In this document: piece after piece, positions 13,005 to 51,670 of the stretch
How the letters are laid out: each line of letters begins with the position of its first letter
How positions within the stretch are numbered: the first letter of the stretch is position 1
Virus record (IMG/VR): IMGVR_UViG_3300029922_000031
Coordinates: 1 to 64,000 of that record
Source: a virus
Strand: one strand, 5' to 3'
DNA: 64,000 nucleotides
Position numbers and translations under genes: made by a program
The notes under the pieces: model-generated
Told to the model about the DNA's origin: nothing
What the model saw: the letters and a program-made list of their open reading frames with translations, nothing else
Database searches by the model: none

Positions 13005-13316
13005 TCAGTCTTCCAGAAGCTCGAACAGCCGATTGCCGCGAAGGACGATCTTCCGGACTATCGAGGGTGGCGACAAGCCGAAGTCCGAGGGGTCGAGCGT
13101 CCGAAGTTCGAGAATATCGTGCATGGCGATAGATCGAATTAGCGAAGCGCTGACGCGCGTCAATTCTGCGTGCTGCAATGTAACGTCGCGCTCGATCCCG
13201 TCGCTCAGCGACGTGCTAATTGAATCCCCGCGAGCGTTCGCGCGTTCGACAGTCTGATCGTTCGAAAGTTCGAGCTTCGGGAAGATCGATAGTCCGGACT
13301 TCGCGACGTCGGACAT
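13005..13316 (-). CDS. Hypothetical protein
   Basis: TAATG overlap with upstream gene. Confidence 0.6.
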   Translation of the reverse strand: MSDVAKSGLSIFPKLELSNDQTVERANARGDSISTSLSDGIERDVTLQHAELTRVSASLIRSIAMHDILELRTLDPSDFGLSPPSIVRKIVLRGNRLFELLED

Positions 13317-13732
13317 TAGAACATGCCCCACTGGTGCGAGCGAAACGCGGAAGGGGAGGGGGCCGCTTCGGGCTCCGGATCCTCGGCGATCTCGGTCTGG
13401 GCGACGGCTTCGTCGATGAGGATCTCCTCGCCAGAAAGCTCCATGCGCCTGAAAATGATGGCGAGATTTACGTGCAGGCGATGCCTCATCATCAAGTCGT
13501 AGGCGTAGTTCGCCTGTTTCTCGGTCAGAATGCTTGAGGCGCTGACCCGGAGACGATTCGCCATATCACGTAAGACCTCGAAATCCTTACGCTTTCCCGA
13601 GACGGGATCGGCGAAGAAAGCCTCGGCGTTCAACAGCCGAAGGGCGTAGCTAATGTTGGCGATACGGGTAGGCGACTGATCCTGAAGGACTCTGAAAACG
13701 TCGGAGTCGCGCCATAACCTTGCAGCGGCCAT
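13316..13732 (-). CDS. Hypothetical protein ending HQWGMF
   Basis: 138-aa ORF; C-terminal WGxF motif. Confidence 0.7.
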   Translation of the reverse strand: MAAARLWRDSDVFRVLQDQSPTRIANISYALRLLNAEAFFADPVSGKRKDFEVLRDMANRLRVSASSILTEKQANYAYDLMMRHRLHVNLAIIFRRMELSGEEILIDEAVAQTEIAEDPEPEAAPSPSAFRSHQWGMF

Positions 13733-13808
13733 AATTCGCCCTTTCGGAAAGTAGTAAATTCGCGAAAGGGCGACTTAGCCCTTTCGCTATGTTCGGACTT
13801 CGCGAAGC

Positions 13809-14540
13809 TCAGAGCGCCGCGAGCTTGTCGGCGAGGACGGAGTTCGGACGAATGGTGAGCGTGTTGCCGCTGCGATCGGCGATGCCGAGCACGTCGAACA
13901 AGTGCATGATCTGGCCAGCCTGCGAGCGAGCCGTGCCCAGAGCCTTGCCGGAGCCGCCCTTCGTGGTGCTGGCGGTGATCGCCGCCATCAGGTCCGTCGA
14001 CTTGACGGTGCCGGCGGCTTTGAGCGTCTTGAAGCAATCCATGACGTAGACGCTCGGACGCTTGCCGGCGGCGAGGGCCATCAGGATGTTGTCGAACTTC
14101 TCGGCGATCTTGACCTGCGTCGGGCGCAGGGTGAGAACGGCCGCCTTGTTCGCGTCGAGGTCCGCCGGAGCTTCGTCGGTCAGGATGAATGCCTCGTTGG
14201 GCAGGGCGTTGATGTCGCGCGCGGCGCGCGGTGTGCCGGGGACCTTCGGAGTCCGGGGCGTCTTGGCGGCCTTCGTCGGGGCAGGGGCCTCGTCCGCAGC
14301 GACGATCGGCTCGCCGGCGGGCTGCTCCTCGTAGACCTCGGAGCGCGCGATCGCGGCTTCGAGCTGGCGCTCTTGCTCGGGGTCCAGCTCGGTGATCTCC
14401 TCGACCGGCGTCTCGATCTCCTCGACAGCGGAGGCTTCGACGATGGTCGGGTCGAGCTCCATGTCGCCGAGGATGCTCTCGATGCTTTCGAGTTCGGCGA
14501 CGTTGATGGGCGCGTTCATGCTCGTTCCGATGTTGCTCAT
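13809..14540 (-). CDS. Protein with acidic N-terminus and probable winged-helix C-terminus
   Basis: 243-aa ORF, AGGAG RBS, strong codon bias. Confidence 0.75.
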   Translation of the reverse strand: MSNIGTSMNAPINVAELESIESILGDMELDPTIVEASAVEEIETPVEEITELDPEQERQLEAAIARSEVYEEQPAGEPIVAADEAPAPTKAAKTPRTPKVPGTPRAARDINALPNEAFILTDEAPADLDANKAAVLTLRPTQVKIAEKFDNILMALAAGKRPSVYVMDCFKTLKAAGTVKSTDLMAAITASTTKGGSGKALGTARSQAGQIMHLFDVLGIADRSGNTLTIRPNSVLADKLAAL

Positions 14541-14658
14541 AGTGTAGCTCCTGTGTTTCGAATGTCTGTTGCGAGCTTAGCTTTGCGTTTGCTCGATAAT
14601 GAGAGAATAGCGCAAGCCCTGATGGGTGTCGGTAGGCAACGAAAGGAGAAGGTTGGGT

Positions 14659-14925
14659 TTAGATCGTTGCTTTGCGCGTTCGGTCTTCATTGATATGGCC
14701 TACGAGGCCCAGCAGAAGAATGCCAGCAGTCGATAATACGAAGGCCAGCATCCCCATGACTAACAGGCCAAGGCCGCTCAGCACGACGAGGATGGGCAGA
14801 ATCACGTTGGCGACGAAGCGCGTGGGTGCCCAGCCGACCGCGACCTTGAGCGCTACGGCGACGGAATTGAACCAACTGGCGTTACGCTCATAGGTCACGC
14901 GGGGCAGGGTGATCTTTATGTTCAC
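14659..14925 (-). CDS. Small membrane protein
   Basis: Long hydrophobic stretch; GTGA overlap. Confidence 0.65.
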   Translation of the reverse strand: MNIKITLPRVTYERNASWFNSVAVALKVAVGWAPTRFVANVILPILVVLSGLGLLVMGMLAFVLSTAGILLLGLVGHINEDRTRKATI

Positions 14926-15467
14926 ACAGTCTCCTTGGGTAGTTCGAACCACTTCCAGTCACACCCGCGGAAGAAGCACTCGACCATTACCTCAACATCG
15001 TAGCTGGCGGCGTGGGCCTTCGCAGGGTCGTAGGGAACGTCGCAGGCGAAGCACAGCTCGCCAAGGTTGGGTAGCTTGCCGTTGGGCGTCGCCCATCTCC
15101 CCGAGAGCATCGTGTCGAAGCTCGGCGTGGTGATCAGCGGGAAGCCGCAGCGCTTGAGCTCCTGATTGAGGTAGGGCACGTCGAAGCCGTCGCCGTTGTG
15201 GGCGACGATTAGATCCGCATCGCCAAGAAAGGTGATCAAGTGCGGCGCGATGGCGTGGAACGTCGGCTTACCGATCAGATCCGAGGCGCTGATGCCATGA
15301 ACGCGCTGTGCGTCGGCAGCGATCGAGCGCTCAGGGTTGATCCGGTATTCCAGCACGCGCTCGCGCTTGTGAGTGTCAAAGTCCCACAATCCAGCGTATA
15401 CCTCAATGATTCTGTGGTCAGGCGTAAAGAGCCCGGTCGTTTCAGTGTCTAGGCCGACGATCTTCAT
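14922..15467 (-). CDS. dnaQ: DEDDh 3'-5' exonuclease (DNA pol III epsilon-like)
   Basis: LDTETTG, VAHNGDGFD, HAASYDV. Confidence 0.9.
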   Translation of the reverse strand: MKIVGLDTETTGLFTPDHRIIEVYAGLWDFDTHKRERVLEYRINPERSIAADAQRVHGISASDLIGKPTFHAIAPHLITFLGDADLIVAHNGDGFDVPYLNQELKRCGFPLITTPSFDTMLSGRWATPNGKLPNLGELCFACDVPYDPAKAHAASYDVEVMVECFFRGCDWKWFELPKETV

Positions 15468-15805
15468 TTCTCGATCGCCGCCTTGTTGACGATGCGCAGG
15501 TTCGACATACCAGCAATAGAGTGCCAGATTCGCGAGTCGAGGGTAGCGTCGGCGAGGCGAACGCCGATATAGCCACCGTCAATGCCAATCACGAGCCATT
15601 CGGTTGAGCCCGTTCCCCAAGTGATCGTCTGACCGATCTTAGGCTTGAAGAGCGCCGGCCGATGCTCGACGATCTCGTGGACGCCAATATCGAACAGCGC
15701 CCCACCAGAGAGCCGCAGCGTAATGCCAGTGTCCCTCATTTTTGTGACCACGCCGGCGATCAGCACGGTGTCGCCGACCTGAATGTTCTCGATTTCGAAG
15801 ATCAT
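15464..15805 (-). CDS. Hypothetical protein
   Basis: AGGAG RBS, ATGA overlaps. Confidence 0.7.
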   Translation of the reverse strand: MIFEIENIQVGDTVLIAGVVTKMRDTGITLRLSGGALFDIGVHEIVEHRPALFKPKIGQTITWGTGSTEWLVIGIDGGYIGVRLADATLDSRIWHSIAGMSNLRIVNKAAIEK

Positions 15806-16173: not shown

Positions 16174-16175
16174 CG

Positions 16176-24092: not shown

Positions 24093-24659
24093 TTATGCCG
24101 CGCGCGTTCTCCGCATCGCCATCAGTTGAAGGAACTGATCTGTCGCGATCCCAGCGTGCGCAATTGCCACAGCGTCAGCCAGATGCTCGTTCGAATTGAG
24201 GACCTGTTTCTTGCCGCCCTTCGCGCGCAACCACGGCGCATCGGGGAACTTTTCGGTCGCCCAGATGATCATTTCCTCCTTCGAAGCGGTCTTTGTGCCG
24301 ACAGTGGCCATTTTTGTCTCGAATGGCTGCACCTGAATGAGCGGCTTAGGGCAAGAGGCCAGCAGCCCGATGGAAATGCCGAAAGAGAGGGCGGCGCGCG
24401 CACTCTGGGCGCCGCTCGGGATTTCGGCGAACGCCAGCGAGCAATCGCCGACGAAGGCGTGAAAAAGCTTGATGATCTCGCGCGAGCGCCGCAGATCGTC
24501 GGAGTTCTGCCGCACCGACTTGTTGACCATGCGCTCTGTATCGATCAGCTCCAGATCGAGGACGCCGAGCGTCATGGTGTCGAGATCGAGTTCCAATTTC
24601 GCCATGCCAAAATGACGAAGCGATGGGTCTAAGGCCGCGACCCTCATAATGCTGGACAT
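24093..24659 (-). CDS. RuvC-like Holliday junction resolvase
   Basis: ALDPSLRHFG, FAEIP, EHLADAVAI. Confidence 0.8.
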   Translation of the reverse strand: MSSIMRVAALDPSLRHFGMAKLELDLDTMTLGVLDLELIDTERMVNKSVRQNSDDLRRSREIIKLFHAFVGDCSLAFAEIPSGAQSARAALSFGISIGLLASCPKPLIQVQPFETKMATVGTKTASKEEMIIWATEKFPDAPWLRAKGGKKQVLNSNEHLADAVAIAHAGIATDQFLQLMAMRRTRAA

Positions 24660-24723
24660 GATTTTCCTAAAAGTGACAAGGATGGAAGTTTGCGTCGAAA
24701 TTCCCCGGCGCCAGGTTTGGGTT

Positions 24724-25311
24724 TTAGAAAGCGCCCCAGTTAGGGTTGCCGCCGTAGACCTTCTCTTTTTCTTCGGCCGCGGCCATGTCGGTCTGCTTCT
24801 TCGCCTTGGTGATGGCCTTCGCGTGCTGCCAGACGAATGCGCCCATAACATTCTTGAGGCGCTCGCCGGGCATATCCAAACCCGTTATGGCGGCGAGCTC
24901 GGGGTTGCCGAGACTGATCTCGGCGCAGAGCGACTGCTCGATGGACGGGAACGCCACGCAGAGCGAACTCTCGTCGAACTCCACCTGCTTGAACGGCTGA
25001 GCGTCGACCGGCCTGAAACTGAAAATGTAGCGTTTGTCGCGGGCGCCTTTGCGGACATTCTTGAAGGTGTATTCGCCCGAAGGGACCGACGCGGTCTTGT
25101 AGGTGCCATTCTCCATCAGAATGGGCTGCTTCAACGGCATGTCGAGGGTGTAGACGACCTCGGGCGACATTCCCGCGTTGATGATATTGACCAATTTGTC
25201 GCGAGCGTGATCGAACGGTGTCTGCTCGGTCACGACGCCGTCAGCGTTCTCGGTGGCGATAGGCTCGCCGCTATCCCACCCCTTCTTCGGAATTCTCTTT
25301 CTTCGTGCCAT
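24724..25311 (-). CDS. Hypothetical protein ending NPNWGAF
   Basis: 195-aa ORF after promoter/operator 25327-25365. Confidence 0.75.
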   Translation of the reverse strand: MARRKRIPKKGWDSGEPIATENADGVVTEQTPFDHARDKLVNIINAGMSPEVVYTLDMPLKQPILMENGTYKTASVPSGEYTFKNVRKGARDKRYIFSFRPVDAQPFKQVEFDESSLCVAFPSIEQSLCAEISLGNPELAAITGLDMPGERLKNVMGAFVWQHAKAITKAKKQTDMAAAEEKEKVYGGNPNWGAF

Positions 25312-34549: not shown

Positions 34550-35626
34550 TTAGATCGCGTCGAGCTCCGCGAGGATCGAATTGACCTCGCTCGGATCGAG
34601 ATCGGTCGACTCTTCCATCGCCGTGCCCGGCGCCGAAGGTGCGGGCTTCTCGACGGCCGCAGTTTTCTCGACGGCCGCAGTCTTGGCCTTCGCCGCCTTC
34701 GCCTTCGCGGCGGCCGCAGTCTTGGCGGCGTCAGCAGCGTCGGCGGCGGCAACCAGTCGGCGCATCTTGTCCATTTCGGACTCGACCGCCACGACGGGCT
34801 CGGCTTCGGTTTCGGTAGCGACGATCTCCTCGGCGATCTTCTCGATCTCCGGATCGACCACCGCTTCGGCGACACGCGCCGACGGACTGGTCAGCAACGC
34901 CGCCGATCTCGGCCCAGCGATCGCAATGCCCGACGTCGAAATGCCGGTCATGTTGACGATGGACGTGATCGCCTTCGTCTCTTCTCCGCGGAAGAACTCG
35001 CGTTCAACCAGGGCGAACAGGTCGACGGCCTTGTCGATCGACGCCTTCGAAACAGGCTTCGCGCTGGGGTGAGGCATGACGGTATATTTGGTGTCGAAGC
35101 CCTTGCCAGTGCGCTCGATGGTGAAGTCGAAGCCCTTCTCGTAGTCGAGAATGTTGCCACTCTCGGCCTCGTATTCGTCGATCATGGAGAGGATCGTACC
35201 GAAAGTGGTCGGCGTCACCTCGAACGGAACCGGATCCTCGGAAGCATCCGGGCCGGAGCGAATGACGGCGTTCAACAGAACGGCCTTCTTCGCCTTCCAT
35301 TCCGTCATCAGCTTGATGTCGTCGTCGGAGACGGCACCCTTGATAGCGCGTTCGACAGCGGCGGCGACAGGACTCGGGGTGCCGTAGACGATGTCGGAGT
35401 TGCCGACGACTGCGACGGGCTTGCCGCCCATCTCGGTCTTGATCCAGTGGACGCCGTACTCGAGCCAGAACTGGCCGGGGACCGCAAGCGGACCCATCGC
35501 CTGGACTGGCAGAATGCGAAGACGGGTCTTGCCCTCCTTCGCCTTCTTGATCTCGTTGGTTCCACGAGAATATTTGTTCTTCGCGCCTTTGATCAGCGCG
35601 AGCATAGCGGGAGACATGGTAGCCAT
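34550..35626 (-). CDS. Single-stranded DNA-binding protein (T4 gp32-like)
   Basis: RLRILP...HW...G.DF.IER.GKG.DTKY.V; Ala-rich linker and acidic tail. Confidence 0.75.
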   Translation of the reverse strand: MATMSPAMLALIKGAKNKYSRGTNEIKKAKEGKTRLRILPVQAMGPLAVPGQFWLEYGVHWIKTEMGGKPVAVVGNSDIVYGTPSPVAAAVERAIKGAVSDDDIKLMTEWKAKKAVLLNAVIRSGPDASEDPVPFEVTPTTFGTILSMIDEYEAESGNILDYEKGFDFTIERTGKGFDTKYTVMPHPSAKPVSKASIDKAVDLFALVEREFFRGEETKAITSIVNMTGISTSGIAIAGPRSAALLTSPSARVAEAVVDPEIEKIAEEIVATETEAEPVVAVESEMDKMRRLVAAADAADAAKTAAAAKAKAAKAKTAAVEKTAAVEKPAPSAPGTAMEESTDLDPSEVNSILAELDAI

Positions 35627-36848: not shown

Positions 36849-39800
36849 TCAGATCAGTGATTGAACCGCGTCGAAGACCTTGATCAGGCTGTCGAATTTC
36901 TCGGGCGCATGGTAGATTTCACCCGGATTAAAGCCGACCACCAGGTTAGCGTCGTAAGTTGCGCTGTAGTGAATCGAGCCGGCGTCGTCCGAAGCCTTGC
37001 CCTTGAAGTCGGGCAGAAAGGTTCGCACGGTTGTCCCGCCCATCAGGACGATGATTGGCGGCTTGATGATGTCCAGTTCCTTGTCGAGAAAGGGGCGATA
37101 GGTCTTGAGCTCCTCGGCCGAGACCTGCTTGCCCTCCTTTGGACGCTTGATCAGCGCCGTCCAATAGCCCTGGTCGACCCGTAGGCCGACTTCATCCATC
37201 GCAGCCTGCGTCTGCTCGACCGCGTAGGGGCGCCGGCTAGGCGAGGACATGAACATCATATTGGCCTCTTCCTCGGCAGCCGAGGGCGCGTCGAAGATGA
37301 TGGCGAACTCGGCGTCCTCGGAAGCATAGGCTCGGACGGGCACGCCGTCCTTCACCACTGCCGAGAGCATGACGTTGTAGAGCTTCTCCAGGCGCCGGCG
37401 ATCGGGCTCCTCCAGGGCCATTTCCCGGTGGATGGGTACGATGCTCGTCACCAGGCCGGGGATTAGCTCGCGCTGGTCCTTGATCCTGGTCGGGCTATCG
37501 ATCGGGACGTGGGTCGGTTCGATCGCCGCGAAGCAGCCGATCCTATTAAGAAGTTCGATCTTAGCGACGTTGACCAGGCGTCTATTAACGCGCGCCGATA
37601 AGTCGGCCATGCTGTCGAACTTGCGATAGCCTGCCGTGCCGTCGCCTCTAGCCTCGACGATCGCCGCGGCCGCGTTCTCGGAAAGCCCTTTGACGCGCGT
37701 GAAAGGGATCATGAGCTTGAAGTCCGTGATGATTTCGAACCGCTCGGTGGCAAGGTTGATCTCGGGCATGTCGATCGTCACGCCATGTGAGGCGGCGTCG
37801 GCGAGTAGGGCAGGGAGCTTCTCGTCCTTCACCAGCGAGAGCGTCGCGGCGAAATACTCGACCGGATAGTAGGTCTTCAGCCACATCGCCTGGTAGGAGA
37901 TCAGCGTGTATTCGACCGAGTGAGACTTGTTGAAGCCGTAGCCGGCGAAGCCTTCGATCTTGTCGAACAGATGACCCGCCCATTCGACGTCGCAGCCGAC
38001 TGTCTTGACGCACCCGTCGACGAACTTGCCGCGCTCCTTCTTCATCTCCTCGGGCAGCTTTTTGCCCATAATCTTGCGCAGCTTGTCGGCGTCCGGCGCC
38101 GAATAGCCGGCGATCACACGCGACGCCTGCATGACCTCTTCCTGATAGACGAAGACGCCATAGGTCTCTTTTAGAACTGCCTCGAGCAGCGGGTGGTCGT
38201 ATTCGACCGTCTCGATGCCCTGCTTGCGCTTCCAATAGGAGTCCATCATCCCCGACTCCATCGGGCCTGGCCGGTAGAGCGCGGTGGCGGCCGTGATGTC
38301 CTCGAAAGTGATCGTGCCGTCCTTGCCGAGCTCCTTGAGCAGGCGCCTCATGCCGCCCGACTCGAACTGGAACACGCCGGTCGTCTTGCCGATCGCGAAG
38401 TTGCCGAGCACCTTCTCGTCGTCGAGCGGGATCGACATAAGGTTGACCTTCGCCGAGTGCCGCTTGCGGATGTATTGGGTCGTCAGGTCGATAATGTCGA
38501 GGGTTTCGAGGCCCAGAAGATCCATCTTGATCAAGCCCTGGTCCTCGACGATGCGCTTGTCCCAACAGACCACTTTCTCAGCGCCCGATCGGCGCTCGAC
38601 GACCGCGCGCTCGACAATGTCGCAGCCGCCGACGATGACGCCGGCAGCGTGCTGGCCGAGGTTGCGCATGACGCCTTCAAGCTTGAGGCAGACGCCCCAG
38701 ATGGGCGGGAACTTGTCGCGGAAGGCGCCGATCTCAGCGACTTGCTCAGCCGCTTCGGTCAGAGGGACGTGCGCACCGTGCTTCTTTGGGGTCAGCTTCG
38801 AGCAGCCGAACTCCCTCTCCTCGAGCCCGAACGCCTTCGCGACGTCCCGGATGGCCGAAGCCGGCCCGAGGGTGGAGAAGTTTGAGACGCCAGCGACGCG
38901 CGCTGTGCCGTATTTGTTGACCAGATACTCGACGACCTCATGCCGGCGGGCCGACATGAAGTCCAAATCGGCGTCAGGCAGATCGAGACGATCGGGGTTG
39001 ATGAAGCGTTCGAACAGGAGGCCAAAGCGAATCGGGTCGCATTCGGTGATGCCCATGAGGTAAGCGACGAGCGAGCCGCCGACGGAGCCGCGGCCAGGTC
39101 CGACGAGAATGCCTTGCGACTTGGCGTAGTTGACGACGTCCTCGACAAGCAGAAAGTAGCCGGAAAAGCTCAGCGACTTGAGGATCTGAAGTTCGTAGAC
39201 CAGCCGAGGTCGATAGACCGCCTCCAGCTCCGCCTTCTCGGGCTTGTGACCGAAGACCGAGGCGCTGAAACGCTTGGCCCAGCCGAGCTTGCACTTTGCG
39301 ACGACCGCAGCGAACTCATCCGGCGCCATCTTCGGCAGCGAAGGCTTCTGCTTCTTCCACTCGTAGTGAACCAGATCGACGAGCTTCTCGGTGTTCATCA
39401 GCCCGTCTCTAAACGCGAGCGCCGTCTCCTTGGGGTCCATTCCGCGGGCGTTCAGCCGCTTGCAGCCCTCGACCACTTGCGACGCCAGCGCCGCATTCGC
39501 CATCGGATGAAGATCGCGAAACGCCGGCGACTTGTTCCACATCGACGATAGCGGCGTGTTCGAACAGATCGCGCCCATCACCTCGGTCGCATCCGCTTCA
39601 TTCTCGTCGTAGCAGACGGGGCGTGTGACAAGCGGTAGGAAGCCATACGTGCGTGCCGCTTCGATCGCCTTCTTGTTGAGGGTGTCGAACAGCGGCGTGT
39701 TGACCGGCGTGAGCGTGACGAAGACATTAGAAGCACTGAGAGCGTCGCGAATTTTTGAGAGTATCAACGTAGCATCGCGATGCCCCAACACGCTGTAGAC

Positions 39801-40241
39801 GTCGCTAGAAGCGATTGCGACGTCGTCCGCGCTCAAGTCTGCGAGCGCTGCGAACAGATCGCTAAAGCCCAGTTTCGCGTTGTTATAGAAATGGGCCTCG
39901 TCGTTGGCGAGCGACAGCAGCCGAAACAGCGCCAGCAAGCCCTTCTCCGATAGGACGTAATAGGTCAGGAAGAACTCCGGCGGCGCCTTCGCCTTGCCCT
40001 CTTTGCGAGGCGGCTTGCGCCAGGTGAAATCGTCGACCAGCCGCAGCCGGCAGCCTACGATCGGCTTGACGCCTTTCTTTTTGCAACGATTGGTGAAGTC
40101 GATCATCGAGGTAACGTTCATGGTCTCGGTGAGAGCGACGGCCTTGGCCTCAGCCTTCACCGCGGCATCGACCAGCCGCTCCACCGATAGAATGGATTCT
40201 CCGAGAGAGAAGTTCGATCGAGCGGCTAAAATCGCGTGCAT
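36849..40241 (-). CDS. dnaE: DNA polymerase III alpha (family C) with C-terminal UDG-like domain
   Basis: GPGRGSVGGS, LLFERFINPDR, PDADLDF, GLIKMDLLGL, FAGYGFNKSH. Confidence 0.95.
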   Translation of the reverse strand: MHAILAARSNFSLGESILSVERLVDAAVKAEAKAVALTETMNVTSMIDFTNRCKKKGVKPIVGCRLRLVDDFTWRKPPRKEGKAKAPPEFFLTYYVLSEKGLLALFRLLSLANDEAHFYNNAKLGFSDLFAALADLSADDVAIASSDVYSVLGHRDATLILSKIRDALSASNVFVTLTPVNTPLFDTLNKKAIEAARTYGFLPLVTRPVCYDENEADATEVMGAICSNTPLSSMWNKSPAFRDLHPMANAALASQVVEGCKRLNARGMDPKETALAFRDGLMNTEKLVDLVHYEWKKQKPSLPKMAPDEFAAVVAKCKLGWAKRFSASVFGHKPEKAELEAVYRPRLVYELQILKSLSFSGYFLLVEDVVNYAKSQGILVGPGRGSVGGSLVAYLMGITECDPIRFGLLFERFINPDRLDLPDADLDFMSARRHEVVEYLVNKYGTARVAGVSNFSTLGPASAIRDVAKAFGLEEREFGCSKLTPKKHGAHVPLTEAAEQVAEIGAFRDKFPPIWGVCLKLEGVMRNLGQHAAGVIVGGCDIVERAVVERRSGAEKVVCWDKRIVEDQGLIKMDLLGLETLDIIDLTTQYIRKRHSAKVNLMSIPLDDEKVLGNFAIGKTTGVFQFESGGMRRLLKELGKDGTITFEDITAATALYRPGPMESGMMDSYWKRKQGIETVEYDHPLLEAVLKETYGVFVYQEEVMQASRVIAGYSAPDADKLRKIMGKKLPEEMKKERGKFVDGCVKTVGCDVEWAGHLFDKIEGFAGYGFNKSHSVEYTLISYQAMWLKTYYPVEYFAATLSLVKDEKLPALLADAASHGVTIDMPEINLATERFEIITDFKLMIPFTRVKGLSENAAAAIVEARGDGTAGYRKFDSMADLSARVNRRLVNVAKIELLNRIGCFAAIEPTHVPIDSPTRIKDQRELIPGLVTSIVPIHREMALEEPDRRRLEKLYNVMLSAVVKDGVPVRAYASEDAEFAIIFDAPSAAEEEANMMFMSSPSRRPYAVEQTQAAMDEVGLRVDQGYWTALIKRPKEGKQVSAEELKTYRPFLDKELDIIKPPIIVLMGGTTVRTFLPDFKGKASDDAGSIHYSATYDANLVVGFNPGEIYHAPEKFDSLIKVFDAVQSLI

Positions 40242-40243
40242 TA

Positions 40244-40495
40244 TCAACCCTCTAGCATCCGCCAATGTGTGATCTGGACGCGATCAAACTGACCATTCGT
40301 CTTGATGAAGCCTTCGTAAGCTTCGAGCTCCGTCTGAAGACGAATGTTCAGCGCGCCGGTGAAGATCACCCGACCGCTGTCTTTGATCTCGCCCTTGATG
40401 AAGTCGAACCAGACAGCCAACTTCGACGTGTAGACGGTCGGCGCGGGCGTCATCGCAACCTGCTCGTCGGCAACGTCTTTATCGATCTCATTCAT
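40244..40495 (-). CDS. Hypothetical protein
   Basis: 83-aa ORF, AGGAG RBS. Confidence 0.7.
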   Translation of the reverse strand: MNEIDKDVADEQVAMTPAPTVYTSKLAVWFDFIKGEIKDSGRVIFTGALNIRLQTELEAYEGFIKTNGQFDRVQITHWRMLEG

Positions 40496-41035: not shown

Positions 41036-41671
41036 TTACCTGTATCTCTTGGCGGCGAGAGCCAGCTCACGATAGACCGCAGCGCGATCTGTCTTGGAAA
41101 GTCCCATGAAATCAAAGACCATTGCCGCGGTTACACGCCCAACAGCGAAGACGGCAATGTCGCGGCCGCGGCCTGACTGCGCGCGGGCCTGACTGTGCTG
41201 AACCGCGTCGAGAAGGAATTGCGGTGGCTTGTCGATCAGGTCGACGAACAACCGCGCCCGCGGCGAAAGCCGATTCATCACGAAGTCGCGGGTGTCGGCG
41301 CGTTCGAACGCCTCGATGCCGGATAGGCCAGCATCATCCTCGATCGCCTCGTGCAACCCGCCCGAATCTTCGGCGGGCTCGTCACCCGGCATTATGTCGA
41401 GCGAAGTGCATTGACCGTTGTCGATCTGATCCTGCACCCATCGGTTGATGTGGTGATGCATTCCTCGGCTCAGAAACGCCAGGAAGGGGACGCCGTATTC
41501 CTCGCTCCAGGCGTCCCGAGCCTTGCACCAGGCGATGCAGAGCTCCTGATAGATGTCCTGCGCCGTTAGGCTGGCGGCGCCGGCCGCGTGAGCGCGTCGT
41601 AAAACGCGCCACGCGAAGCTCTTGATGGCCTTGTCGTGCTGCGGCGTGAAGGCAAGCTGGGTGTTCATCAC
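41036..41671 (-). CDS. Sigma70-family-like factor
   Basis: Region 2-like QDIYQELCIAWCKARDAWSEEYGVPFLAFL; SLD region 3; RLSPRAR and MGLS region 4-like. Confidence 0.65.
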   Translation of the reverse strand: MMNTQLAFTPQHDKAIKSFAWRVLRRAHAAGAASLTAQDIYQELCIAWCKARDAWSEEYGVPFLAFLSRGMHHHINRWVQDQIDNGQCTSLDIMPGDEPAEDSGGLHEAIEDDAGLSGIEAFERADTRDFVMNRLSPRARLFVDLIDKPPQFLLDAVQHSQARAQSGRGRDIAVFAVGRVTAAMVFDFMGLSKTDRAAVYRELALAAKRYR

Positions 41672-42828
41672 ACGCCGCCAAAGACACGTTGAGCGAAGCC
41701 GTCGGCGGTCTCTTTATCGACGCGCGAGAGACGCGCAGCCCAGGCGGCGATCAGACCCGCCCGCCAGGCGCCACCCTTCATCACCGCGAAGCGCGCGGCG
41801 TTGATCAGCTCGCGCGGCGAGATCGTCGAGCCCAACCGGGCGGCCTTGAACGCCTCGCGAATGCTGTTGGCGAACTCGACGAGCTTGTCGGCGTCCTTTT
41901 TGTCGATGTTCGCCTGACCGGCGATCACCATCGACTCGACCTTCGGCTCCATGTAACCGATCTCGATCGTGACGCCGAAGCGCGAGAAGTTCGCGCCGTC
42001 CTGCATCTGGGTGCCCTGATAGAGACCCGTCTCGTCGCCGCAACCGTTCGTGTTGCCGGTCGCGACGAAGCGGAAGTTTGGGTGCGGCCGGATCACGCGC
42101 TGCGCCGGCGGAGCCTCTTTGATGTAGAGAGCCTTGCCTTCGAGAACCGGCTGATAGACCGAGAGAACGGGCGCGGTGCCGCGGTCATACTCGTCGGCGC
42201 AGTAGACGAAGCCTTCGAGCATCGCGACGGCCAGCGGACCGAGTTCGAACTTGGTCTCGCCTTCCTTGACGACATATTGCCCGATGATATGCGATTCCTC
42301 GGTGTTGACGGTGTGCTGGACGCGCATGAAGGGGCGCTTCGTGCGCGCCGCGATCTGCTCGAGAAGCGTGGTCTTGCCGGTGCCGTGATAGCCCCAGACG
42401 TAGAGCGGGGCCTTAAGCTCCTGTGCAATCAGGATTGACTTAAGGTTCTCGATGTCAAAAACGTAGTTCTGGTCCACGTCGGGCACGAGCTGTTCGGCTT
42501 CCGGCGTCAGCTCGGACATGACCGGGATCATGATCGGCTGGCCGCGCGCGTTCATCGCCGCCTTGACCTCGCCGAGAGCGAAGATTTCGTGCATCGGCTG
42601 ACGATCGCCGCCGACGACTTTGGCCTGCTCCTTCTGAGCCTGCTTGACGCGGATCATGCTCTTGGCGGCCTCGGAAAGGATGGGCTCGCCGGGGTATTCG
42701 CGCTGGTAGCGGGCAATGTCCCAGCCAGGATGATTCTCGCGAAGGTAAACTTGGATGGAGTGGCACAGTGCTCCGTCGAGCTTGCACTCGATTTTGCCGC
42801 CACCGATAGCGGGCGTCGTCTCCGTCAT
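41668..42828 (-). CDS. cobS: CobS-like MoxR AAA+ ATPase
   Basis: GYHGTGKT, ADEYD, FVATGNT.G.GD..GLY.GT, SPRELI. Confidence 0.88.
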   Translation of the reverse strand: MTETTPAIGGGKIECKLDGALCHSIQVYLRENHPGWDIARYQREYPGEPILSEAAKSMIRVKQAQKEQAKVVGGDRQPMHEIFALGEVKAAMNARGQPIMIPVMSELTPEAEQLVPDVDQNYVFDIENLKSILIAQELKAPLYVWGYHGTGKTTLLEQIAARTKRPFMRVQHTVNTEESHIIGQYVVKEGETKFELGPLAVAMLEGFVYCADEYDRGTAPVLSVYQPVLEGKALYIKEAPPAQRVIRPHPNFRFVATGNTNGCGDETGLYQGTQMQDGANFSRFGVTIEIGYMEPKVESMVIAGQANIDKKDADKLVEFANSIREAFKAARLGSTISPRELINAARFAVMKGGAWRAGLIAAWAARLSRVDKETADGFAQRVFGGV

Positions 42829-42915: not shown

Positions 42916-45294
42916 TCAAGCGGCAAGTAGAATCCGCTTGAGCTCCTTCATAATCGTCGAGGGGAGCTCCTCGATCCGCTTAAGAACAACATGCTTCGGG
43001 TAATAGTGCCGAACCGAGTCATCCATGATCCCGATACCGATCACCTCGATGCCGCGCTTTGTCGACTCCTCGATGACCTGATGGAGATGCGAATTTAGCG
43101 CAGCCTCTGGCCTTTCACCGCTACGATAGGTGTAGTGGGCGGCGGCCGAGGGCGACCCGTCGGACAGAACGATCAGCACCTTGCGCTTCTCCTTGCGCCT
43201 CATAAGACGAGTCGCCGCGACCTCGATGCACTCGCCATCGACGTTGTTGCGCAGGAAGTTCTGATGCTCGGCGGCGACCGCGAACCGCTGCTTGACCGCC
43301 GGCGTCAGACGCTCGTTGAAGTCCTTGTAGATTGGCATGTAGATCGGCTCGATGCGGCCGTATTGCTTGCCGATGCGAGCCTCCTCGGCCGTGATCAGAT
43401 CGTCCAGCGTGCGGTTCGCGGGAAGCGTCGTGAAGCCGAGCACCTCATGCGCGATCTTCACCCGTTCCAGCGTCTGCGAGAGGGCGTAGGCCGCCTGCAT
43501 CGCCGTCGTCATCTTCTTCCCGCCCATCGAGCCGGAGTTGTCGACCACCAGTCCGACCGCTGTGTCCTTCGACGTGTTCTCGTGGAGACGGCGGAAGACC
43601 CGATCGTCGCCGACGAGCAACTTGTGCAGGCTCGCCGCGTGCAGCCGACCCGACCGGAAGCCGGGCAGCTTGAGCACGTTCGAGCGGGACGCCATGAGCC
43701 GCTCAATGTCCTTTTGCATCGGCCCAATCATGTGCCGCGTCGAGCTGTCAAAAGACTCAAACTCCTCGTCCGTGACTTTACCCGTGATGACCGAGACGTC
43801 GTCGTAGTCCTTGGTGAAGACGCGATATTCGGCGCCGCGCGTCATCCGGGTCGCAAGATCGGTGATCTCGCCGACGATCGCGTCCTTGAATTTGTCGCCG
43901 TCGACCTCGATCTCCATGTCGGAGAACGCCGACGAACCCATGCCTGGATCCTTGCTTTCGCCGGACTCCTCTAGTTCGTCGCTGGGCTCTCCGCCGGCGG
44001 AACCTTCTCCAGCTTCTCCGCCGGACCCTTCGTCGCCTGCGTCGCTGTCGTCAGACTCAGACCCAGCGCCTGCGCTGCCATCGTCAGACTCCTCATCCTC
44101 TCCGCCGTCACTGGCAGACGTTCCGACTTCGCCGTCGTCGCCGTCTTCATCCCGCTCTCGATCGGCGGGCTCTCCGTGATCGTTGTCCCGTTCTCCATCG
44201 TCACCGTCGGCGTCATCCTCTGACTCCTCGGGGTCGACAGCTCCGTCACCGTCTCCGTCGCTCCCATCAGCATCACCAGCACCTTCGCTGGGGAGTTCCG
44301 AATCATCGCTCTCTGACTCACTCGAGCCAGAAGTCTCTTCATCCTCGGATTCATCTTCGCCTTTCTCGCCCTCGCCGGGCTTCTCGGTCTCTTTCGGTCC
44401 GTCAGCTTCCTCGCCGGCATCCTCCTCGGACGACTCGCCCTTGTCTTCGCTGGGCTTCTCGTCATCGCCAGTCGATGCTGACTTATCCTTTTCGGCAGAC
44501 TTTTCGCCGCCGGCACCCTCGTCTTCCTCGTCCTCGGGCTTGTCCTTGTTCGCGCCCTTGCCGTCGCTCTTGGTCTTCTCGGTCGAGTCCGACTTGGACG
44601 GCTCGGTCGGGGAGCCAGGCGGCGGAGCGGGCGGGGCAGGGGGCGGCGGCGGGCAGAGAACGCTGTGATAGACCTCTGCGATCGCGAAGGCGTCGCGGGT
44701 GTTCTTCATGCCCGTCATGCGAGCGCGAATGTCTTTCGGCAGCCCGTCGAGCAGCGACTTGACAAGCGGATGCTCCCAGTAGCCCTTGCCCGTCATCCAG
44801 TCATTGAACACCTTCTGGCCGCAAAGCGCGCGCGCCATCACGACGATGATCGCCTCGAACTCCTTCTTCGGATCGCCCTTGGCTTCCGCGATGTGCGGCT
44901 CGGTGATCTTCTTGAGGAAGAACTCGTGCAGTCGGCCGAGATTGTAGTGCGAGCCGGGGAACTTGTCGGCCATCCGCTTCTCGATCAGCGGATCTTCGAG
45001 CATGTTCCACAGGCCGTGCAGCTTCGCGCTCGCCCTGCGCTCCTTCATCTTGTAGGTGAACTCGGTGAAGAGGATGTGCGCAACCTCGTGGTCGATGAAG
45101 CCCTGGATCGCCATGAGCAACTCGGCCGTCGCAGTGTCGGGGATTTGCGGGATGTTGACCCGGATCGGCTTCCCGGCCTTGTCGTTCTCCACATACGCAG
45201 AAGCGCCTCGCTGAGTGACGACCAGCCCCTTGCCTGCAAGGAGCTGGGTCACTTTGACGATGACCTCGCGCATTAGCGCAATATCTTGATTCAT
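42916..45294 (-). CDS. cobT: CobT-like protein: HExxH N-domain, acidic linker, vWA domain
   Basis: DHEVAH; about 240-aa D/E/S/G linker; DNSGSM MIDAS; VLSDGSP. Confidence 0.85.
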   Translation of the reverse strand: MNQDIALMREVIVKVTQLLAGKGLVVTQRGASAYVENDKAGKPIRVNIPQIPDTATAELLMAIQGFIDHEVAHILFTEFTYKMKERRASAKLHGLWNMLEDPLIEKRMADKFPGSHYNLGRLHEFFLKKITEPHIAEAKGDPKKEFEAIIVVMARALCGQKVFNDWMTGKGYWEHPLVKSLLDGLPKDIRARMTGMKNTRDAFAIAEVYHSVLCPPPPPAPPAPPPGSPTEPSKSDSTEKTKSDGKGANKDKPEDEEDEGAGGEKSAEKDKSASTGDDEKPSEDKGESSEEDAGEEADGPKETEKPGEGEKGEDESEDEETSGSSESESDDSELPSEGAGDADGSDGDGDGAVDPEESEDDADGDDGERDNDHGEPADRERDEDGDDGEVGTSASDGGEDEESDDGSAGAGSESDDSDAGDEGSGGEAGEGSAGGEPSDELEESGESKDPGMGSSAFSDMEIEVDGDKFKDAIVGEITDLATRMTRGAEYRVFTKDYDDVSVITGKVTDEEFESFDSSTRHMIGPMQKDIERLMASRSNVLKLPGFRSGRLHAASLHKLLVGDDRVFRRLHENTSKDTAVGLVVDNSGSMGGKKMTTAMQAAYALSQTLERVKIAHEVLGFTTLPANRTLDDLITAEEARIGKQYGRIEPIYMPIYKDFNERLTPAVKQRFAVAAEHQNFLRNNVDGECIEVAATRLMRRKEKRKVLIVLSDGSPSAAAHYTYRSGERPEAALNSHLHQVIEESTKRGIEVIGIGIMDDSVRHYYPKHVVLKRIEELPSTIMKELKRILLAA

Positions 45295-48179: not shown

Positions 48180-48209
48180 AAAAAAGGGCGACCCTTTCGA
48201 GCCGCCCTT
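48180..48209 (-). terminator. Intrinsic terminator after ligase (convergent with repC)
   Basis: aagggcg...cgccctt stem followed by a T run on the minus strand. Confidence 0.6.
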
Positions 48210-48278
48210 GGGACAGAGAGGGCTGCGAACAGCCACCCATTAGTCTACAGACGGGTATGGATAAGTCAACGCTGACGG

Positions 48279-49808
48279 CTACTCCGCGGCAACGGCGAGC
48301 GCCGGGTCTTTGTCGTCGCGGAATCGGATGAAGCGCGGGTGGCGCAGCGAGCCATCAGGGGTGACTTCATGGAACTCGACCTCGATCAGCCGGCCGATGA
48401 TCTCGCAGCCTAGCGCCTGATATTCGAATGGCTGAATGTCGTCGTGACCCAGCAACCGCACCTGGTCGGCCTTGTATAGCCGCCAGAACTCCTCACGCTG
48501 CGCGTCAGAGAAACCGCCACCGACGCGAACGCTGACGCCCTTGCGATCGACGATCAGCCCGCCGAGCTTGCCGACGTACTTGCCCTCGCCCTCGAAGGCG
48601 TCGATCACCCGAAGATCCTCAGTCTCCTCATTTTTCATCTTGAGCCAGGAGCGCGACCGCTTCTTCTGATAGGTGCCGTCGAGCGGCTTGACGATGGCTC
48701 CTTCGAGCATCTTGTAGCCGCCAGTGACAGGATCGGGCGTGACCGCGAGCAGCTCCTTCTCGAGCTCCTCGTCGCCGCGCGCCAGATAGGAGGCGAGTGT
48801 CGTCGTCCGATATTCCTCGAAGATCGAATCGATCTCCTCGTGCGAGTGAGCCAGCCGACGCGGCACCAAGCGAATCCAGTTGCCGGCCGGGGCGAACTGA
48901 ACCAGCCAGATCAGGAAGGCACGGCGCAGGTCGTGCTTCATATTGAACTCGCCGAGGTTCCGAGCGGTCATGAACGCAAACGGCACGGCGTCGAAGACGT
49001 GATAGATCATCTCCGTCGCTTCGACGCTCTTGCGACGCACGGCGCCGGAGCTCTCGCCGAACAGGCCACTGAGCGCCTCGCCCTCCAGAGCAATCGACGC
49101 GCCGGCGTCGCCGCCCAGTATCGCGTAATACAATTTTGCCAGCGGATGAGGGGGCGCTAGTGGCGGGGGCACTGCGTCGGCAGCGTGCTTCGCCGTCCAG
49201 TGAGCCTTCTTGACCATCTCCGCGACGTGGACGCCTAGACCGTCGAGCGCCGGGAAGTGATTGCCGACGCGGCTGAAGAACTTGCCAGTGCCATCTTTCA
49301 CCAGACAGGGCGCCCGCAGGCCGTCGAGCTTGGGCTCCATCGCCACCGGGAAGGTCTTGATGCGCTTCGGCTCGTATTTGTGGCTCAGCATGACCTCGAA
49401 GGTCGGAATCAGGCCGGGCTTCAACTTGTTGACCGTCTTGGCCGTGACGCCGCAGCGGAGATCCTTCGACAAAATCCGCCAGAGCAGCTCCGAGCTGGTT
49501 GCATCCAGCATGTTCATGAGATCCAGAACGTTCTCCTGCGCCAGGTTGCCGGTCATGATGCGAGCCGCGAGACCGCGAATCGTCGCCCAGACCAGGACGT
49601 TGCTCGCGTCGAAGCGCTTCGTGCCAATCGACTCGACGTGCGGCGGCGTGATGCCGAACGTAATGAACGGATCGCAGGCGTATTTGAGAACCTCGATCAT
49701 GAAGGGATCGCCGATCGTGCCGTTCAGGATTCGCTCCTTCTCGACGCGCGATGAGGTCTTGTCGATGGCCCAGAACGTCTCCATCACGTCGTAAGCAGTC
49801 ATTCCCAT
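48279..49808 (-). CDS. ATP-dependent DNA ligase
   Basis: EPKLDGLR, LEGE, VFDA, EGAIVK, WLKMK, LRHPRF. Confidence 0.93.
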   Translation of the reverse strand: MGMTAYDVMETFWAIDKTSSRVEKERILNGTIGDPFMIEVLKYACDPFITFGITPPHVESIGTKRFDASNVLVWATIRGLAARIMTGNLAQENVLDLMNMLDATSSELLWRILSKDLRCGVTAKTVNKLKPGLIPTFEVMLSHKYEPKRIKTFPVAMEPKLDGLRAPCLVKDGTGKFFSRVGNHFPALDGLGVHVAEMVKKAHWTAKHAADAVPPPLAPPHPLAKLYYAILGGDAGASIALEGEALSGLFGESSGAVRRKSVEATEMIYHVFDAVPFAFMTARNLGEFNMKHDLRRAFLIWLVQFAPAGNWIRLVPRRLAHSHEEIDSIFEEYRTTTLASYLARGDEELEKELLAVTPDPVTGGYKMLEGAIVKPLDGTYQKKRSRSWLKMKNEETEDLRVIDAFEGEGKYVGKLGGLIVDRKGVSVRVGGGFSDAQREEFWRLYKADQVRLLGHDDIQPFEYQALGCEIIGRLIEVEFHEVTPDGSLRHPRFIRFRDDKDPALAVAAE

Positions 49809-49824
49809 CAGATGTTTCCTTTCG

Positions 49825-50427
49825 TTATGTAGAAGCTTTGATGGCCGCATTAAGCGCGGCAGTCAGATCACCCGTTGCGGCCGCGCTCGGCGTTTCTGCG
49901 GCGGGCTCCGCCGGAGGCGGTGACGAAAAGATGCCGCGTGAAATCTTCTTGCCTTGCTTGGCTTCCGGCGGGTACTCGGGAATTTCGCGATAGCCAATGT
50001 CTTCGAGAGTAGCGATCTCGAGACCCTTGAATTTATCGAAGCCCTTGAGCCCGTTGCAGGCGCGAATGCGATCGAGATGTTGCGGCAGAATACCGGGGTA
50101 GTTCGTTATCGTCGTCTCCGGGACGACGATGGGCGCGATCGCTCGCAGCACCTTATCGGAAAGACGGCCGAGCTTCGGCGTAGTCGAGAAATAGGGATCG
50201 ACGCCGGCGTCCGGGTCGAGCTCCTTAAACACAGCGCCCATCGGGCACTTGGAGGCGGACATGCACGCCTGACAGCCCTTGCGAACCTCTGGCCCCTGCC
50301 CTCGCCAGACCATATCGCGAAGCTTGTTACACTCGCGCATTTCGACCTCGGCCCCGAAGATCGGGCAGACGAAGCGAAAGCGATTCTCGGCGCTGAGCGA
50401 CTTGCAGGGCGTCATTGATATCGTCAT
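49825..50427 (-). CDS. Cys-rich phage protein
   Basis: CP...C...GCQACM..SKCP. Confidence 0.75.
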   Translation of the reverse strand: MTISMTPCKSLSAENRFRFVCPIFGAEVEMRECNKLRDMVWRGQGPEVRKGCQACMSASKCPMGAVFKELDPDAGVDPYFSTTPKLGRLSDKVLRAIAPIVVPETTITNYPGILPQHLDRIRACNGLKGFDKFKGLEIATLEDIGYREIPEYPPEAKQGKKISRGIFSSPPPAEPAAETPSAAATGDLTAALNAAIKAST

Positions 50428-51122
50428 CAGAAAGCTCCATAGTTCGGGTTTGCTTCAGTCCGCTTCTGCGGCGGCGCAAGAACTGAAAGTATATGATCGT
50501 ATTGCGCGGACACTGACCCACAATTGATCAAGTCAATGTCTGCGATCTTGAATTTCTGTTGCGTGCTTATATTAACAAAGATCAAGCATTGATCAAATGG
50601 GCGTCGATAGTATTCAAACTTACCATCGTGAAAAGCACCGCCGAGCATGTCGTCTATGCTGAGATAGCTTGCGTGCGCCGCTGGCTCTTTGACTTTGGGA
50701 GCAACTGGCGGCGTGTGACTCCGCGGCTCGACTGAACTTGAGATTATCTCGAACGCGCGTTGCGCGACCTTGTCGTAAAGCCCGGCCATCATTGCCGCAG
50801 AGCATCGCTCCTGCTCCTCTTTATTGATCGACCCGACGATCTTGCGACCTACGAAAGCGCCATCGCGATCCGTTATCTCCGCCCACAATTGAGTGGCGTC
50901 GGTCGCGTAATCCTGAAACGTCGTGAGATTGCAGTCGCCGCCGGTGGGCGAATGCGCGGTACACTTTGGCGGACCCGCGACGACATGGGCGGGCATGACA
51001 GAGCCCGTCCCATAGATCTCCTTCACGAACGGTTTGACGTCGATCCCGAAGCCATTTTCGGAGAGCAACTGCAACGTTCTGGAGAGAAGCTCGCTGCCAG
51101 TGTCGAGCGTCGCAAGCGCCAT
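50427..51122 (-). CDS. Hypothetical protein ending NPNYGAF
   Basis: TGATG-coupled on both sides. Confidence 0.7.
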   Translation of the reverse strand: MALATLDTGSELLSRTLQLLSENGFGIDVKPFVKEIYGTGSVMPAHVVAGPPKCTAHSPTGGDCNLTTFQDYATDATQLWAEITDRDGAFVGRKIVGSINKEEQERCSAAMMAGLYDKVAQRAFEIISSSVEPRSHTPPVAPKVKEPAAHASYLSIDDMLGGAFHDGKFEYYRRPFDQCLIFVNISTQQKFKIADIDLINCGSVSAQYDHILSVLAPPQKRTEANPNYGAF

Positions 51123-51670
51123 CAGAACGAGCCCCAATTGGGGTTGCGCGCCAGATGATCAATCACCGGCTCGGGCTTCTTTGGCGTCTCGGCGGACCTT
51201 GTTCTCGTGCCGATTGGGCGATCATCGACGACGGGCGACAGCTCGAATTTCATGTTGAAGAGGTGCTCGAGCGGGCTCTGGCTAGACTCGGAGCTTTCAC
51301 CCTCGGTCAGTTTGTCCATGAACGCACCGATCTCGTGTTCCAGATCAGACCTAGTGGCGCAGACTCGCTCGATTCCGTAGCTGAGCGATGAGGATCTGAT
51401 CCCGCCGCCGGTGGCATCCGAGTAGTCTCGACTCTGTTTTTCCGAAATCTTCGTGTTGCCTTCATCGAAGGCGTAGCCTACGCTTACCTTCTTCGTGCAG
51501 GTGATGATGGGCTTGCGCGCGCCGATTTTGCCCCACTTGAATAGTAGAAGCGCCGGCGCGATCGGCTGCTTGTACTTCGAGATCACAATGACCTCGTAGT
51601 CCTTGGTGCCGCCGATGTGCTTCAGATAGGTCCGCGTGACCAGGATCGGGAACGGGAACTTGTCGCTCAT
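51122..51670 (-). CDS. WGR-domain-like protein ending NPNWGSF
   Basis: YL...GGTKDYEV...KWGKIG...KISEKQSRDY. Confidence 0.65.
   Translation of the reverse strand: MSDKFPFPILVTRTYLKHIGGTKDYEVIVISKYKQPIAPALLLFKWGKIGARKPIITCTKKVSVGYAFDEGNTKISEKQSRDYSDATGGGIRSSSLSYGIERVCATRSDLEHEIGAFMDKLTEGESSESSQSPLEHLFNMKFELSPVVDDRPIGTRTRSAETPKKPEPVIDHLARNPNWGSF

Follow-up and report, generated by a model that had tools for sequence, protein, structure and literature searches.

A shared C-terminal peptide on unrelated replication-module proteins of SSU5-type phage-plasmids, a candidate docking motif

The window analysed here is the whole 64,000-nucleotide stretch formed by the first 64 kb of the viral record IMGVR_UViG_3300029922_000031 (105,074 bp, 60% G+C), an SSU5-type genome. 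Four of its open reading frames (ORFs), coding for proteins with unrelated bodies, end in variants of one short peptide around [W/Y]-G-x-F, referred to below as the tag. An earlier reading of the DNA letters, the sequence-only reading, had proposed this peptide as a docking or targeting signal. The tag itself stands, strengthened: in the replication/recombination module, many unrelated proteins share a C-terminal short linear motif that is conserved, under selection and coherent within genomes. It is enriched at C-termini, conserved in orthologues, selected at the peptide level, co-varies between families of the same genome and is absent from the host chromosomes scanned. The best explanation, which we hold to be moderately probable, is a C-terminal docking motif for a shared receptor in this module, and the receptor itself is probably encoded by the element.

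The tagged proteins and the shape of the motif

The four tagged proteins and the stretches encoding their tags are given below in window coordinates.

24724..25311, minus strand: family A protein, 195 amino acids (aa), ending in ...KVYGGNPNWGAF, tail NPNWGAF
24727..24747, minus strand: family A tag NPNWGAF, codons AAC CCT AAC TGG GGC GCT TTC, followed by TAA
51122..51670, minus strand: family B protein, WGR-like, 182 aa (193 aa if the start is at 51703)
51125..51145, minus strand: family B tag NPNWGSF, codons AAC CCC AAT TGG GGC TCG TTC
50427..51122, minus strand: orphan protein D, 231 aa from ATG (236 aa from TTG at 51137)
50430..50450, minus strand: protein D tag NPNYGAF, codons AAC CCG AAC TAT GGA GCT TTC
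13316..13732, minus strand: family C protein, 138 aa, ending in SHQWGMF
13319..13339, minus strand: family C tag SHQWGMF, core WGMF

All four ORFs reported by the sequence-only reading were present with these ends, all on the minus strand, and the codon strings it quoted were exact on re-reading. The family A gene is located between SbcCD-like genes and a RuvC-like resolvase gene; the family B gene directly follows the primase gene, in a slot between primase and ligase. Orthologues of family C end in SPVWGLF and NPLWGMF. The bodies had been described as unrelated, in agreement with the comparisons made here: pairwise BLASTP aligned the last 7 residues alone, profile-profile comparison of families A, B and C with hhalign aligned the last 9-18 residues alone, and neither method detected the four proteins as paralogues. 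The linkers before the tags had been described as rich in Pro, Glu and Lys. Over the 37 residues preceding the tag, Glu and Lys were enriched, as were Ala, Arg and Gln, but Pro was not (0.042 in the linkers compared to 0.053 in the bodies).

Across the 105,074-bp genome, which has 848 ORFs with a length of 40 aa or more, the terminal pattern [WYF]G.[FWY]$ matched these four and no others. Judged by how often the four-residue pattern occurs inside proteins, only about 0.03 C-terminal occurrences per genome were expected. In crude, conservative gene sets of six related genomes, 12 C-terminal matches were observed against 0.16 expected (Poisson P about 7e-19).

The full motif was found to be longer than first seen, about E-x-x-[YL]-x-x-[NH]-P-x-[WFY]-G-x-[FW]-COOH, sometimes followed by one additional G or A. 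A position profile was made from 42 non-redundant tags, in which the aromatic residue at -4 (W/F/Y) is present in all by construction. Gly occupied -3 in 40 of the 42 tags and Phe occupied -1 in 38, the remainder having Trp. Pro was found at -6 in 30/42, Asn or His at -7 in 28/42, Tyr or Leu at -10 in 25/42 and Glu at -13 in 19/42. Position -5 was Asn in 20/42 and otherwise Ala, Leu, Thr, Gln (two tags) or Arg, and various residues were seen at -2 (Ala 11, Arg 8, Thr 6, Met 4, Ser 3, Leu 3, Ile 3).

An internal copy of a similar peptide, SPMYGVF, was observed in a conserved protein of 342 aa encoded in the structural half of the genome, outside the window (genome 92178-93206, L087:8178-9206, minus strand). 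This protein has no Pfam match, and seven genomes carry the peptide as SP[MV]YG[VI][FW]. It counts as one independent event, lies within chance by our own estimate and is probably coincidental.

Spread, conservation and coherence of the tag

The replication genes of the window have about 68% nucleotide identity to those of the Rhizobium phages RHph_X66 (X66), V1VFA-S, B1VFA and RHEph10, with more distant matches in Pseudomonas phage nickie and Salmonella phage SSU5, the latter being the type phage-plasmid. Twenty genomes were analysed in full: 11 phage or viral records and nine contigs of 96-119 kb that carry the ATPase gene CobS, taken from bacterial assemblies of Faunimonas, Magnetospirillum, Sphingomonas, Ancylobacter, Phyllobacterium, Roseospira, Massilia, Chitinibacter and Xenorhabdus. 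A Yersinia pestis contig is not among the 20. These SSU5-type genomes, whose hosts and lineages are alpha-, beta- and gammaproteobacterial, contain 99 ORFs with the tag, 1-9 in each genome; these fall into 56 sequence families, and the median protein length is 165 aa. With a degenerate DNA pattern for NPNWGxF plus a stop, additional genuine ORF ends were located on IMG/VR contigs belonging to the same lineage. A word-based homologue search with protein P0004 returned only the protein itself, tblastn of protein P0002 against GenBank phages gave no match, and locus searches from the family alignments, in which the tag itself served as the pattern, returned already known genomes or nothing.

Orthologues were found to keep the terminus, since all phmmer homologues of tagged proteins were themselves tagged in 11 genomes. 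Few untagged homologues were seen in the 20 genomes, among them one frameshifted gene and one probable chance match. On the Phyllobacterium contig (L146), the homologue of an X66-group family at 13852-14439 is untagged, and an overlapping 54-aa ORF in another frame (14348-14512) ends in NPNFGRF. This split tag is probably the result of a frameshift or a sequencing error.

Families A and B are the two most widespread tagged families. Family A was tagged wherever it was found by sequence (15 genomes), and SSU5 and nickie have tagged proteins at the family A position, between the SbcC-like and RuvC-like genes. Family B was likewise tagged wherever it was found, in 13 genomes, between primase and ligase. 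An exhaustive HMMER search (hmmsearch) with family A resulted in 368 cluster representatives. Among the best 150 of these 368, which scored 57-281 bits, were matched over most of their length, belong to different 50%-identity clusters and have a pairwise identity to the query of 17-37%, the tag was kept in 142, with the exact end in 127 and with an extra Gly or Ala in 15; the remaining 8 had variant or truncated tails. Cluster look-up of the distant members returned only "hypothetical protein". In the alignments the tail is invariant, the linkers before it differ in length and sequence, and the bodies diverge too.

The slot of protein D, from the WGR-like gene to the ligase gene, is occupied elsewhere by non-homologous proteins, and all occupants are tagged (231, 183 and 88 aa). 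The 183-aa protein of locus L001 ends in NTQYGAF and the 88-aa protein of RHEph10 in HENFGRF. Variant tags were found in the same slots of the more distant relatives: SSU5 has ...TGWATW behind its primase gene and ...PTWATW behind the SbcC-like one, and nickie has ...WGAFG, ...FGGWA and ...NPQYGIW.

The sequence-only reading had placed selection on the peptide rather than on a DNA repeat, and the wider sample agrees: the synonymous codons of the tag vary, and the Arg at -2 in RHEph10 is written AGG, CGC, CGG and AGA in different genes. The tags are also coherent within a genome. Identity at positions -4, -2 and -1 was 0.59 between different families of the same genome, compared to 0.43 within the same family of different genomes and 0.38 for unrelated pairs, and none of 2000 genome-label permutations reached the observed within-genome identity. 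[FY]GRF is used by RHEph10, Ancylobacter and Phyllobacterium, [FY]G[AGT]F by the X66 group, WGxF by the G000 group, Faunimonas and Sphingomonas, WG[ST]W by Magnetospirillum and [WF]GS[WF] by Massilia. Because tags of different families co-vary within a genome, these patterns lend indirect support to a single common reader of the unrelated proteins of that genome.

Five complete host assemblies (22 Mb) were scanned at the DNA level for sequences encoding [NH]-P-x-[WFY]-G-x-[FW]-stop. Of 21 matches, 17 truly encode the tag, and all of these are located on phage-plasmid contigs of about 110 kb, none being chromosomal. The four chromosomal matches are decoys with a Cys at -4, an internal stop, or TGG instead of the stop. 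The NP-prefixed motif is thus not taken over from host proteins. RHEph10 and X66, which infect one host genus, prefer different residues at -2. The absence from host chromosomes and this lineage difference at -2 speak for a reader encoded by the element, short of proving it.

Gene context and predicted structures of the tagged proteins

Gene order is common to the window and X66. On the minus strand and in descending coordinates the genes code for a DnaB-like helicase, a DnaG-like primase, the WGR-like protein, a small conserved protein and an ATP-dependent ligase, followed by CobT, CobS, a sigma factor, DnaE and a gp32-like single-stranded DNA-binding protein (SSB). The order continues with a 5'-3' exonuclease, a RecA-like recombinase, an SbcD/SbcC-like nuclease and the RuvC-like resolvase, and ends with ribonucleotide reductase, dUTPase and an epsilon-like exonuclease; the main gene calls were confirmed by Pfam. 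The tagged genes of the window all lie within this DNA-metabolism block, at 13-52 kb, and adjoin the SbcCD/RuvC-like, primase/ligase and epsilon exonuclease genes. Capsid loading, offered by the sequence-only reading as an alternative role, is unlikely because the tagged genes are all in the DNA-metabolism half of the genome.

Phage-type CobS was found in 28 bacterial assemblies (loci L089-L116), enterobacteria among them, in many cases on contigs of about 96-120 kb. The genera include Faunimonas, Roseospira, Magnetospirillum, Methylocystis, Ancylobacter, Massilia, Paraburkholderia, Sphingomonas, Chitinibacter, Photobacterium, Kluyvera, Buttiauxella, Yersinia, Xenorhabdus and Halomonas, so that the SSU5-type supergroup covers alpha-, beta- and gammaproteobacteria. 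Damaged-looking copies were seen in Massilia, where CobS has an internal TAA, and in Phyllobacterium, where it was matched as two separate pieces.

Pfam and PHROGs searches with the four window proteins returned nothing beyond one sub-threshold match of family B to WGR (PF05406; E=0.065, 13.8 bits, cut-off 22). The family B orthologues of X66 and RHEph10 were annotated as WGR by their depositors. The AlphaFold2 model of family B has a predicted local distance difference test score (pLDDT) of 67 and shows a four-stranded sheet plus helices, then about 40 low-confidence residues including the tail; residues 145-182 are mostly below pLDDT 50 and modelled as disordered. Its top Foldseek matches are the WGR domains of PARP1/2, although weak (E about 0.05, TM 0.2-0.3). 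The family A model (pLDDT 92.7, predicted TM score 0.83) consists of a beta-rich domain, helices, a 38-residue helix and the tail. No meaningful structural neighbours of family A were found (ESM Atlas; Foldseek best E-value 0.02; VIA best Z 4.4), and profile searches of families A and A6 against the PDB gave no match. Protein D had no annotation and no ESM Atlas match, and family C no annotation in Pfam or PHROGs.

One neighbouring gene and two examples of a different terminal residue pair are listed below.

24093-24851, minus strand: conserved protein with RuvC-like motifs (…LDPSLSNFG…, …AEIPxGxQS…, …EHLADA…), not recognised by Pfam
36849-40265, minus strand: DnaE, ending in ...SLIAA
33137-34177: ORF ending in ...AKAA

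The start of the RuvC-like gene overlaps the family A stop, which suggests that the two genes are translationally coupled. Ala-Ala C-termini were observed at about 3- to 9-fold the internal Ala-Ala rate in the alphaproteobacterial elements (observed/expected: X66 22/2.4, B1VFA 17/2.0, G002 13/1.9, G000 6/1.8), and nickie had 0/1.6. These ends may represent a second class of terminal signal, for example a ClpXP-type degron, or an effect of gene-end composition.

Candidate readers, rival explanations and meaning

In the docking explanation, the motif would sit at the C-terminus or one residue before it, on a flexible charged linker or helix behind unrelated small proteins. The near-invariant Gly at -3 would keep the aromatic anchors at -4 and -1 in a turn, and the anchors, with the nearby free carboxylate, would enter a single hydrophobic pocket of one receptor. 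In this way, families A and B and a changing set of lineage-specific small proteins could all be brought as clients to the same machine. The receptor would most likely be encoded by the element, with its specificity drifting together with its tags. Candidates of the first rank are the AAA+/vWA pair CobS/CobT, or the gp32-like SSB. Another replisome protein (DnaE, DnaB or primase), or family A itself, is placed second, and the host beta clamp third. The first-rank candidates have the following coordinates.

41668-42828, minus strand: CobS, MoxR-type AAA+ ATPase (Pfam AAA_5 and CbbQ_C), candidate receptor
42916-45294, minus strand: CobT, CobT N-domain plus vWA (Pfam CobT and CobT_C/VWA), candidate receptor
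34550..35626, minus strand: gp32-like SSB (gp32 family, PF08804), 358 aa, candidate receptor

The gp32-like SSB has an Ala/Lys/Glu-rich low-complexity extension of about 140 residues with an acidic-hydrophobic end, ...DLDPSEVNSILAELDAI. This terminus, ...SILAELDAI, is unlike the tag and may be a partner-binding tail of the SSB's own.

Co-evolution with the tags was examined by a mirror-tree analysis, in which the distance between tag profiles was compared with the divergence of 29 core proteins by partial correlation, controlled for mean divergence. The tape-measure protein reached +0.37, the gp32-like SSB was second with +0.34, CobS and CobT had -0.17 each and DnaB -0.25. The spread is regarded as noise because the tail tape-measure protein ranks first.

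No clamp was detected in the element: PF02768 gave no match in six genomes, and PF09116 and PF00705 gave none in this genome (E<=1 or E<=0.1). A clamp that has diverged beyond sequence detection may still be encoded. Three conserved proteins of 200-250 aa were considered as a hidden clamp and rejected, none being clamp-like; one is RuvC-like by its motifs, in one a conserved C-terminal stretch is likely a winged-helix-type DNA-binding region, judged by the consensus alone, and the third has no assignment. The DnaE proteins of six phages have a conserved DQxEL[ILM]PGL at the alignment position of the clamp-binding motif of E. coli alpha (window 37452-37478, minus strand). This canonical-looking motif suggests that the clamp-less elements use the host beta clamp via DnaE, by a signal distinct from the tag. 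An Hfq-like protein was also considered as the reader and rejected, since its BLAST matches are confined to G000, G001, G002 and a single close relative from IMG/VR (L013/L017).

The tag resembles several known terminal motifs. The beta-clamp motif (QL[SD]LF; E. coli Pol II ends in QLGLF) and the T4 gp45-binding tails are likewise short, often C-terminal and aromatic-ended, have two hydrophobic anchors two residues apart behind a flexible linker, and bring unrelated DNA-metabolism clients to one hub. Positions 2 (W/F/Y) and 5 (F/W) of the tag fit the beta-clamp motif. However, the tag lacks a conserved Gln at position 1 (-5 being Asn in 20/42 and Gln in two), its position 4 (-2) is not hydrophobic, and it has the near-invariant Gly at -3, a conserved Pro at -6 and Asn/His at -7; furthermore, host proteins lack it. 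For gp45 tails and the PCNA-interacting PIP-box the difference is that no clamp gene was detected in the element. The SSB tail DDDIPF and the acidic tails of T7 gp2.5 and gp4 similarly combine a terminal Phe and its carboxylate with a disordered linker and a role in replisome organisation. Only the terminal Phe is common to the tag and the SSB tail, as the tag has no acidic run and its Pro is at -6 instead of -2. The polarity is also reversed, with one tail and many readers for SSB, and many tails and apparently one reader for the tag. Unlike the ssrA tag read by ClpX (L-A-A, nonpolar AA) and the HbYX motif (hydrophobic-Tyr-X), the tag ends in [WFY]-G-x-[FW] with an optional G or A.

The Ku-binding motifs of the non-homologous end-joining factors XLF, PAXX and APLF are read by the vWA domains of Ku70/80. 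Ku and the MoxR/vWA pairs (CobN-CobT, NorD-NorQ, CbbO-CbbQ) may offer a likeness in terminal motifs on unrelated repair accessories that meet at a vWA hub, and the element likewise encodes a vWA protein, CobT, with an intact MIDAS (metal ion-dependent adhesion site), plus a MoxR ATPase. A full-text literature search, in which the genome papers on Rhizobium and SSU5-type phages were covered by titles and abstracts, returned nothing on the motif or on shared tails in these phages. By analogy, the tag would work like a clamp-binding or SSB-type docking tail, although it fails the defining features of each known motif with which it was compared.

The sequence-only reading had named the CobS/CobT machine as one possible partner. 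In this specific form of the docking explanation, the vWA MIDAS, the CobT N-domain or the CobS pore would grip the tail, and tagged proteins would be remodelled or assembled; we regard it as possible, with a low probability. MoxR partners are known to engage the AAA+ pore (bioRxiv 10.64898/2026.10.09.757910; PMC9976466; PMC13036017). The pair is present in the examined SSU5-type elements, inside the replication block and without a CobN partner; 19 of the 20 genomes yielded a CobT, and the MIDAS sequence DxSGS is intact in all 19 orthologues. This gives the proposal permissive support. Against it, Vibrio phage ICP2, from outside this phage group, carries both genes and has no protein with such an ending. 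The CobN proteins of four hosts end in sequences unrelated to the tag, and the idea of the tag as a CobN mimic was rejected for this reason. The negative mirror-tree values give no sign of co-evolution, although that test is weak, and co-occurrence is uninformative, as all sampled genomes belong to one supergroup and nine were found via CobS. A variant clamp-binding motif, by which tagged proteins would be recruited to DnaN, the host's beta sliding clamp, borrowed for the phage DnaE, is considered unlikely. It would account for an element that encodes DnaE and an epsilon-like exonuclease, yet no detectable beta, gp45-type or PCNA-type clamp, and for clients located among replication and repair genes. 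The hydrophobic spacing of N-[W]-G-x-F mirrors that of Q-L-[SDG]-L-F. The pocket of the beta clamp is highly conserved, whereas the tags drift by phage lineage, even within one host genus. In addition, the tag lacks a conserved Gln at motif position 1, keeps a near-invariant Gly at a position that varies in clamp motifs, and commonly has Ala, Arg, Ser, Thr or Gly as the equivalent of Leu4; the DnaE motif differs from the tag, and the NP-prefixed tag ends no chromosomal ORF in the five host genomes. Many unrelated clients with one C-terminal tail are nevertheless the classic clamp pattern, as for the beta clamp, the PIP-box of PCNA and the gp45-binding tails of T4 gp43, gp33 and gp55 (PMC11139829, PMC2988020).

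A degron for timed destruction of early proteins by a host or phage protease (Lon, ClpXP/ClpAP, FtsH) is regarded as quite improbable. A terminal, exposed and aromatic-rich peptide on a flexible linker, carried by many unrelated and mostly small early proteins, would suit such a role, and aromatic-rich Lon tags are known. C-terminal degrons in general have been described (PMC8138137). The tag is unlike known degrons, being neither of the LAA type nor HbYX, and a long position-specific motif with near-invariant Gly and Pro and a conserved Tyr/Leu at -10 is more readily explained by a specific pocket than by a promiscuous protease. The lack of such an ending on host chromosomes, and tags that differ between phages of the same host genus, also speak against a degron. 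The least probable explanation, and in our view a very unlikely one, is that there is no common reader, the ending being a structural cap or homo-oligomerisation element that was spread by recombination and kept for folding. The family A tail is modelled with a pLDDT of about 83 directly after the 38-residue helix, and tandem paralogue arrays exist, both of which would be compatible with a cap. The bodies behind the tags differ in predicted architecture (a WGR-like sheet, an unmatched fold, orphans), and there is no tail-body covariation in family A. The differing codons make a recent DNA transfer of the tail unlikely, and it is difficult to see how tags of unrelated families would co-vary within genomes if they had no partner in common.

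Several observations weigh against the docking explanation. No binding partner of the tag emerged from any test made here, and the mirror-tree over the 29 core proteins was at noise level. The confidently modelled tail of family A could, in that family, serve structure or oligomerisation instead of being a free tag; mutual information between tail and body gave no signal in this family (maximum Z 3.9, compared to 10.6 for body-body pairs). Tandem paralogues in Roseospira, Sphingomonas and RHEph10 contribute part of the within-genome similarity, and remote paralogy might lie behind it as well, although the test compared different sequence families only. About 10% of the tags have one extra Gly or Ala, and since this is tolerated, the aromatic residue need not itself carry the terminal carboxylate. 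Finally, the enterobacterial members have few tags (two in SSU5, one in Xenorhabdus).

A docking motif with a shared and probably element-encoded reader is still the explanation that we prefer. SSU5-type phage-plasmids are widespread, and their replication/recombination module of about 50 kb consists largely of proteins without an assigned function. A conserved, transplantable tail of 7-11 residues on dozens of unrelated proteins offers a handle on the central organiser of this module. It would allow ORFans to be sorted, with tagged proteins classed as clients of one machine, and would represent a new bacterial/phage short linear motif; if its receptor co-evolves with it, the two might serve as an orthogonal docking pair. 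If, as we think doubtful though possible, the CobS/CobT AAA+/vWA machine of the phage recognises its clients by the tag, the phage "cobalamin" genes would be explained: they would code for a chaperone or remodeller by which factors of replication and recombination are assembled or recycled, with a changing set of small host-takeover proteins also among its clients. This would be the first function for cobST in phages and phage-plasmids, exerted through a portable peptide handle.

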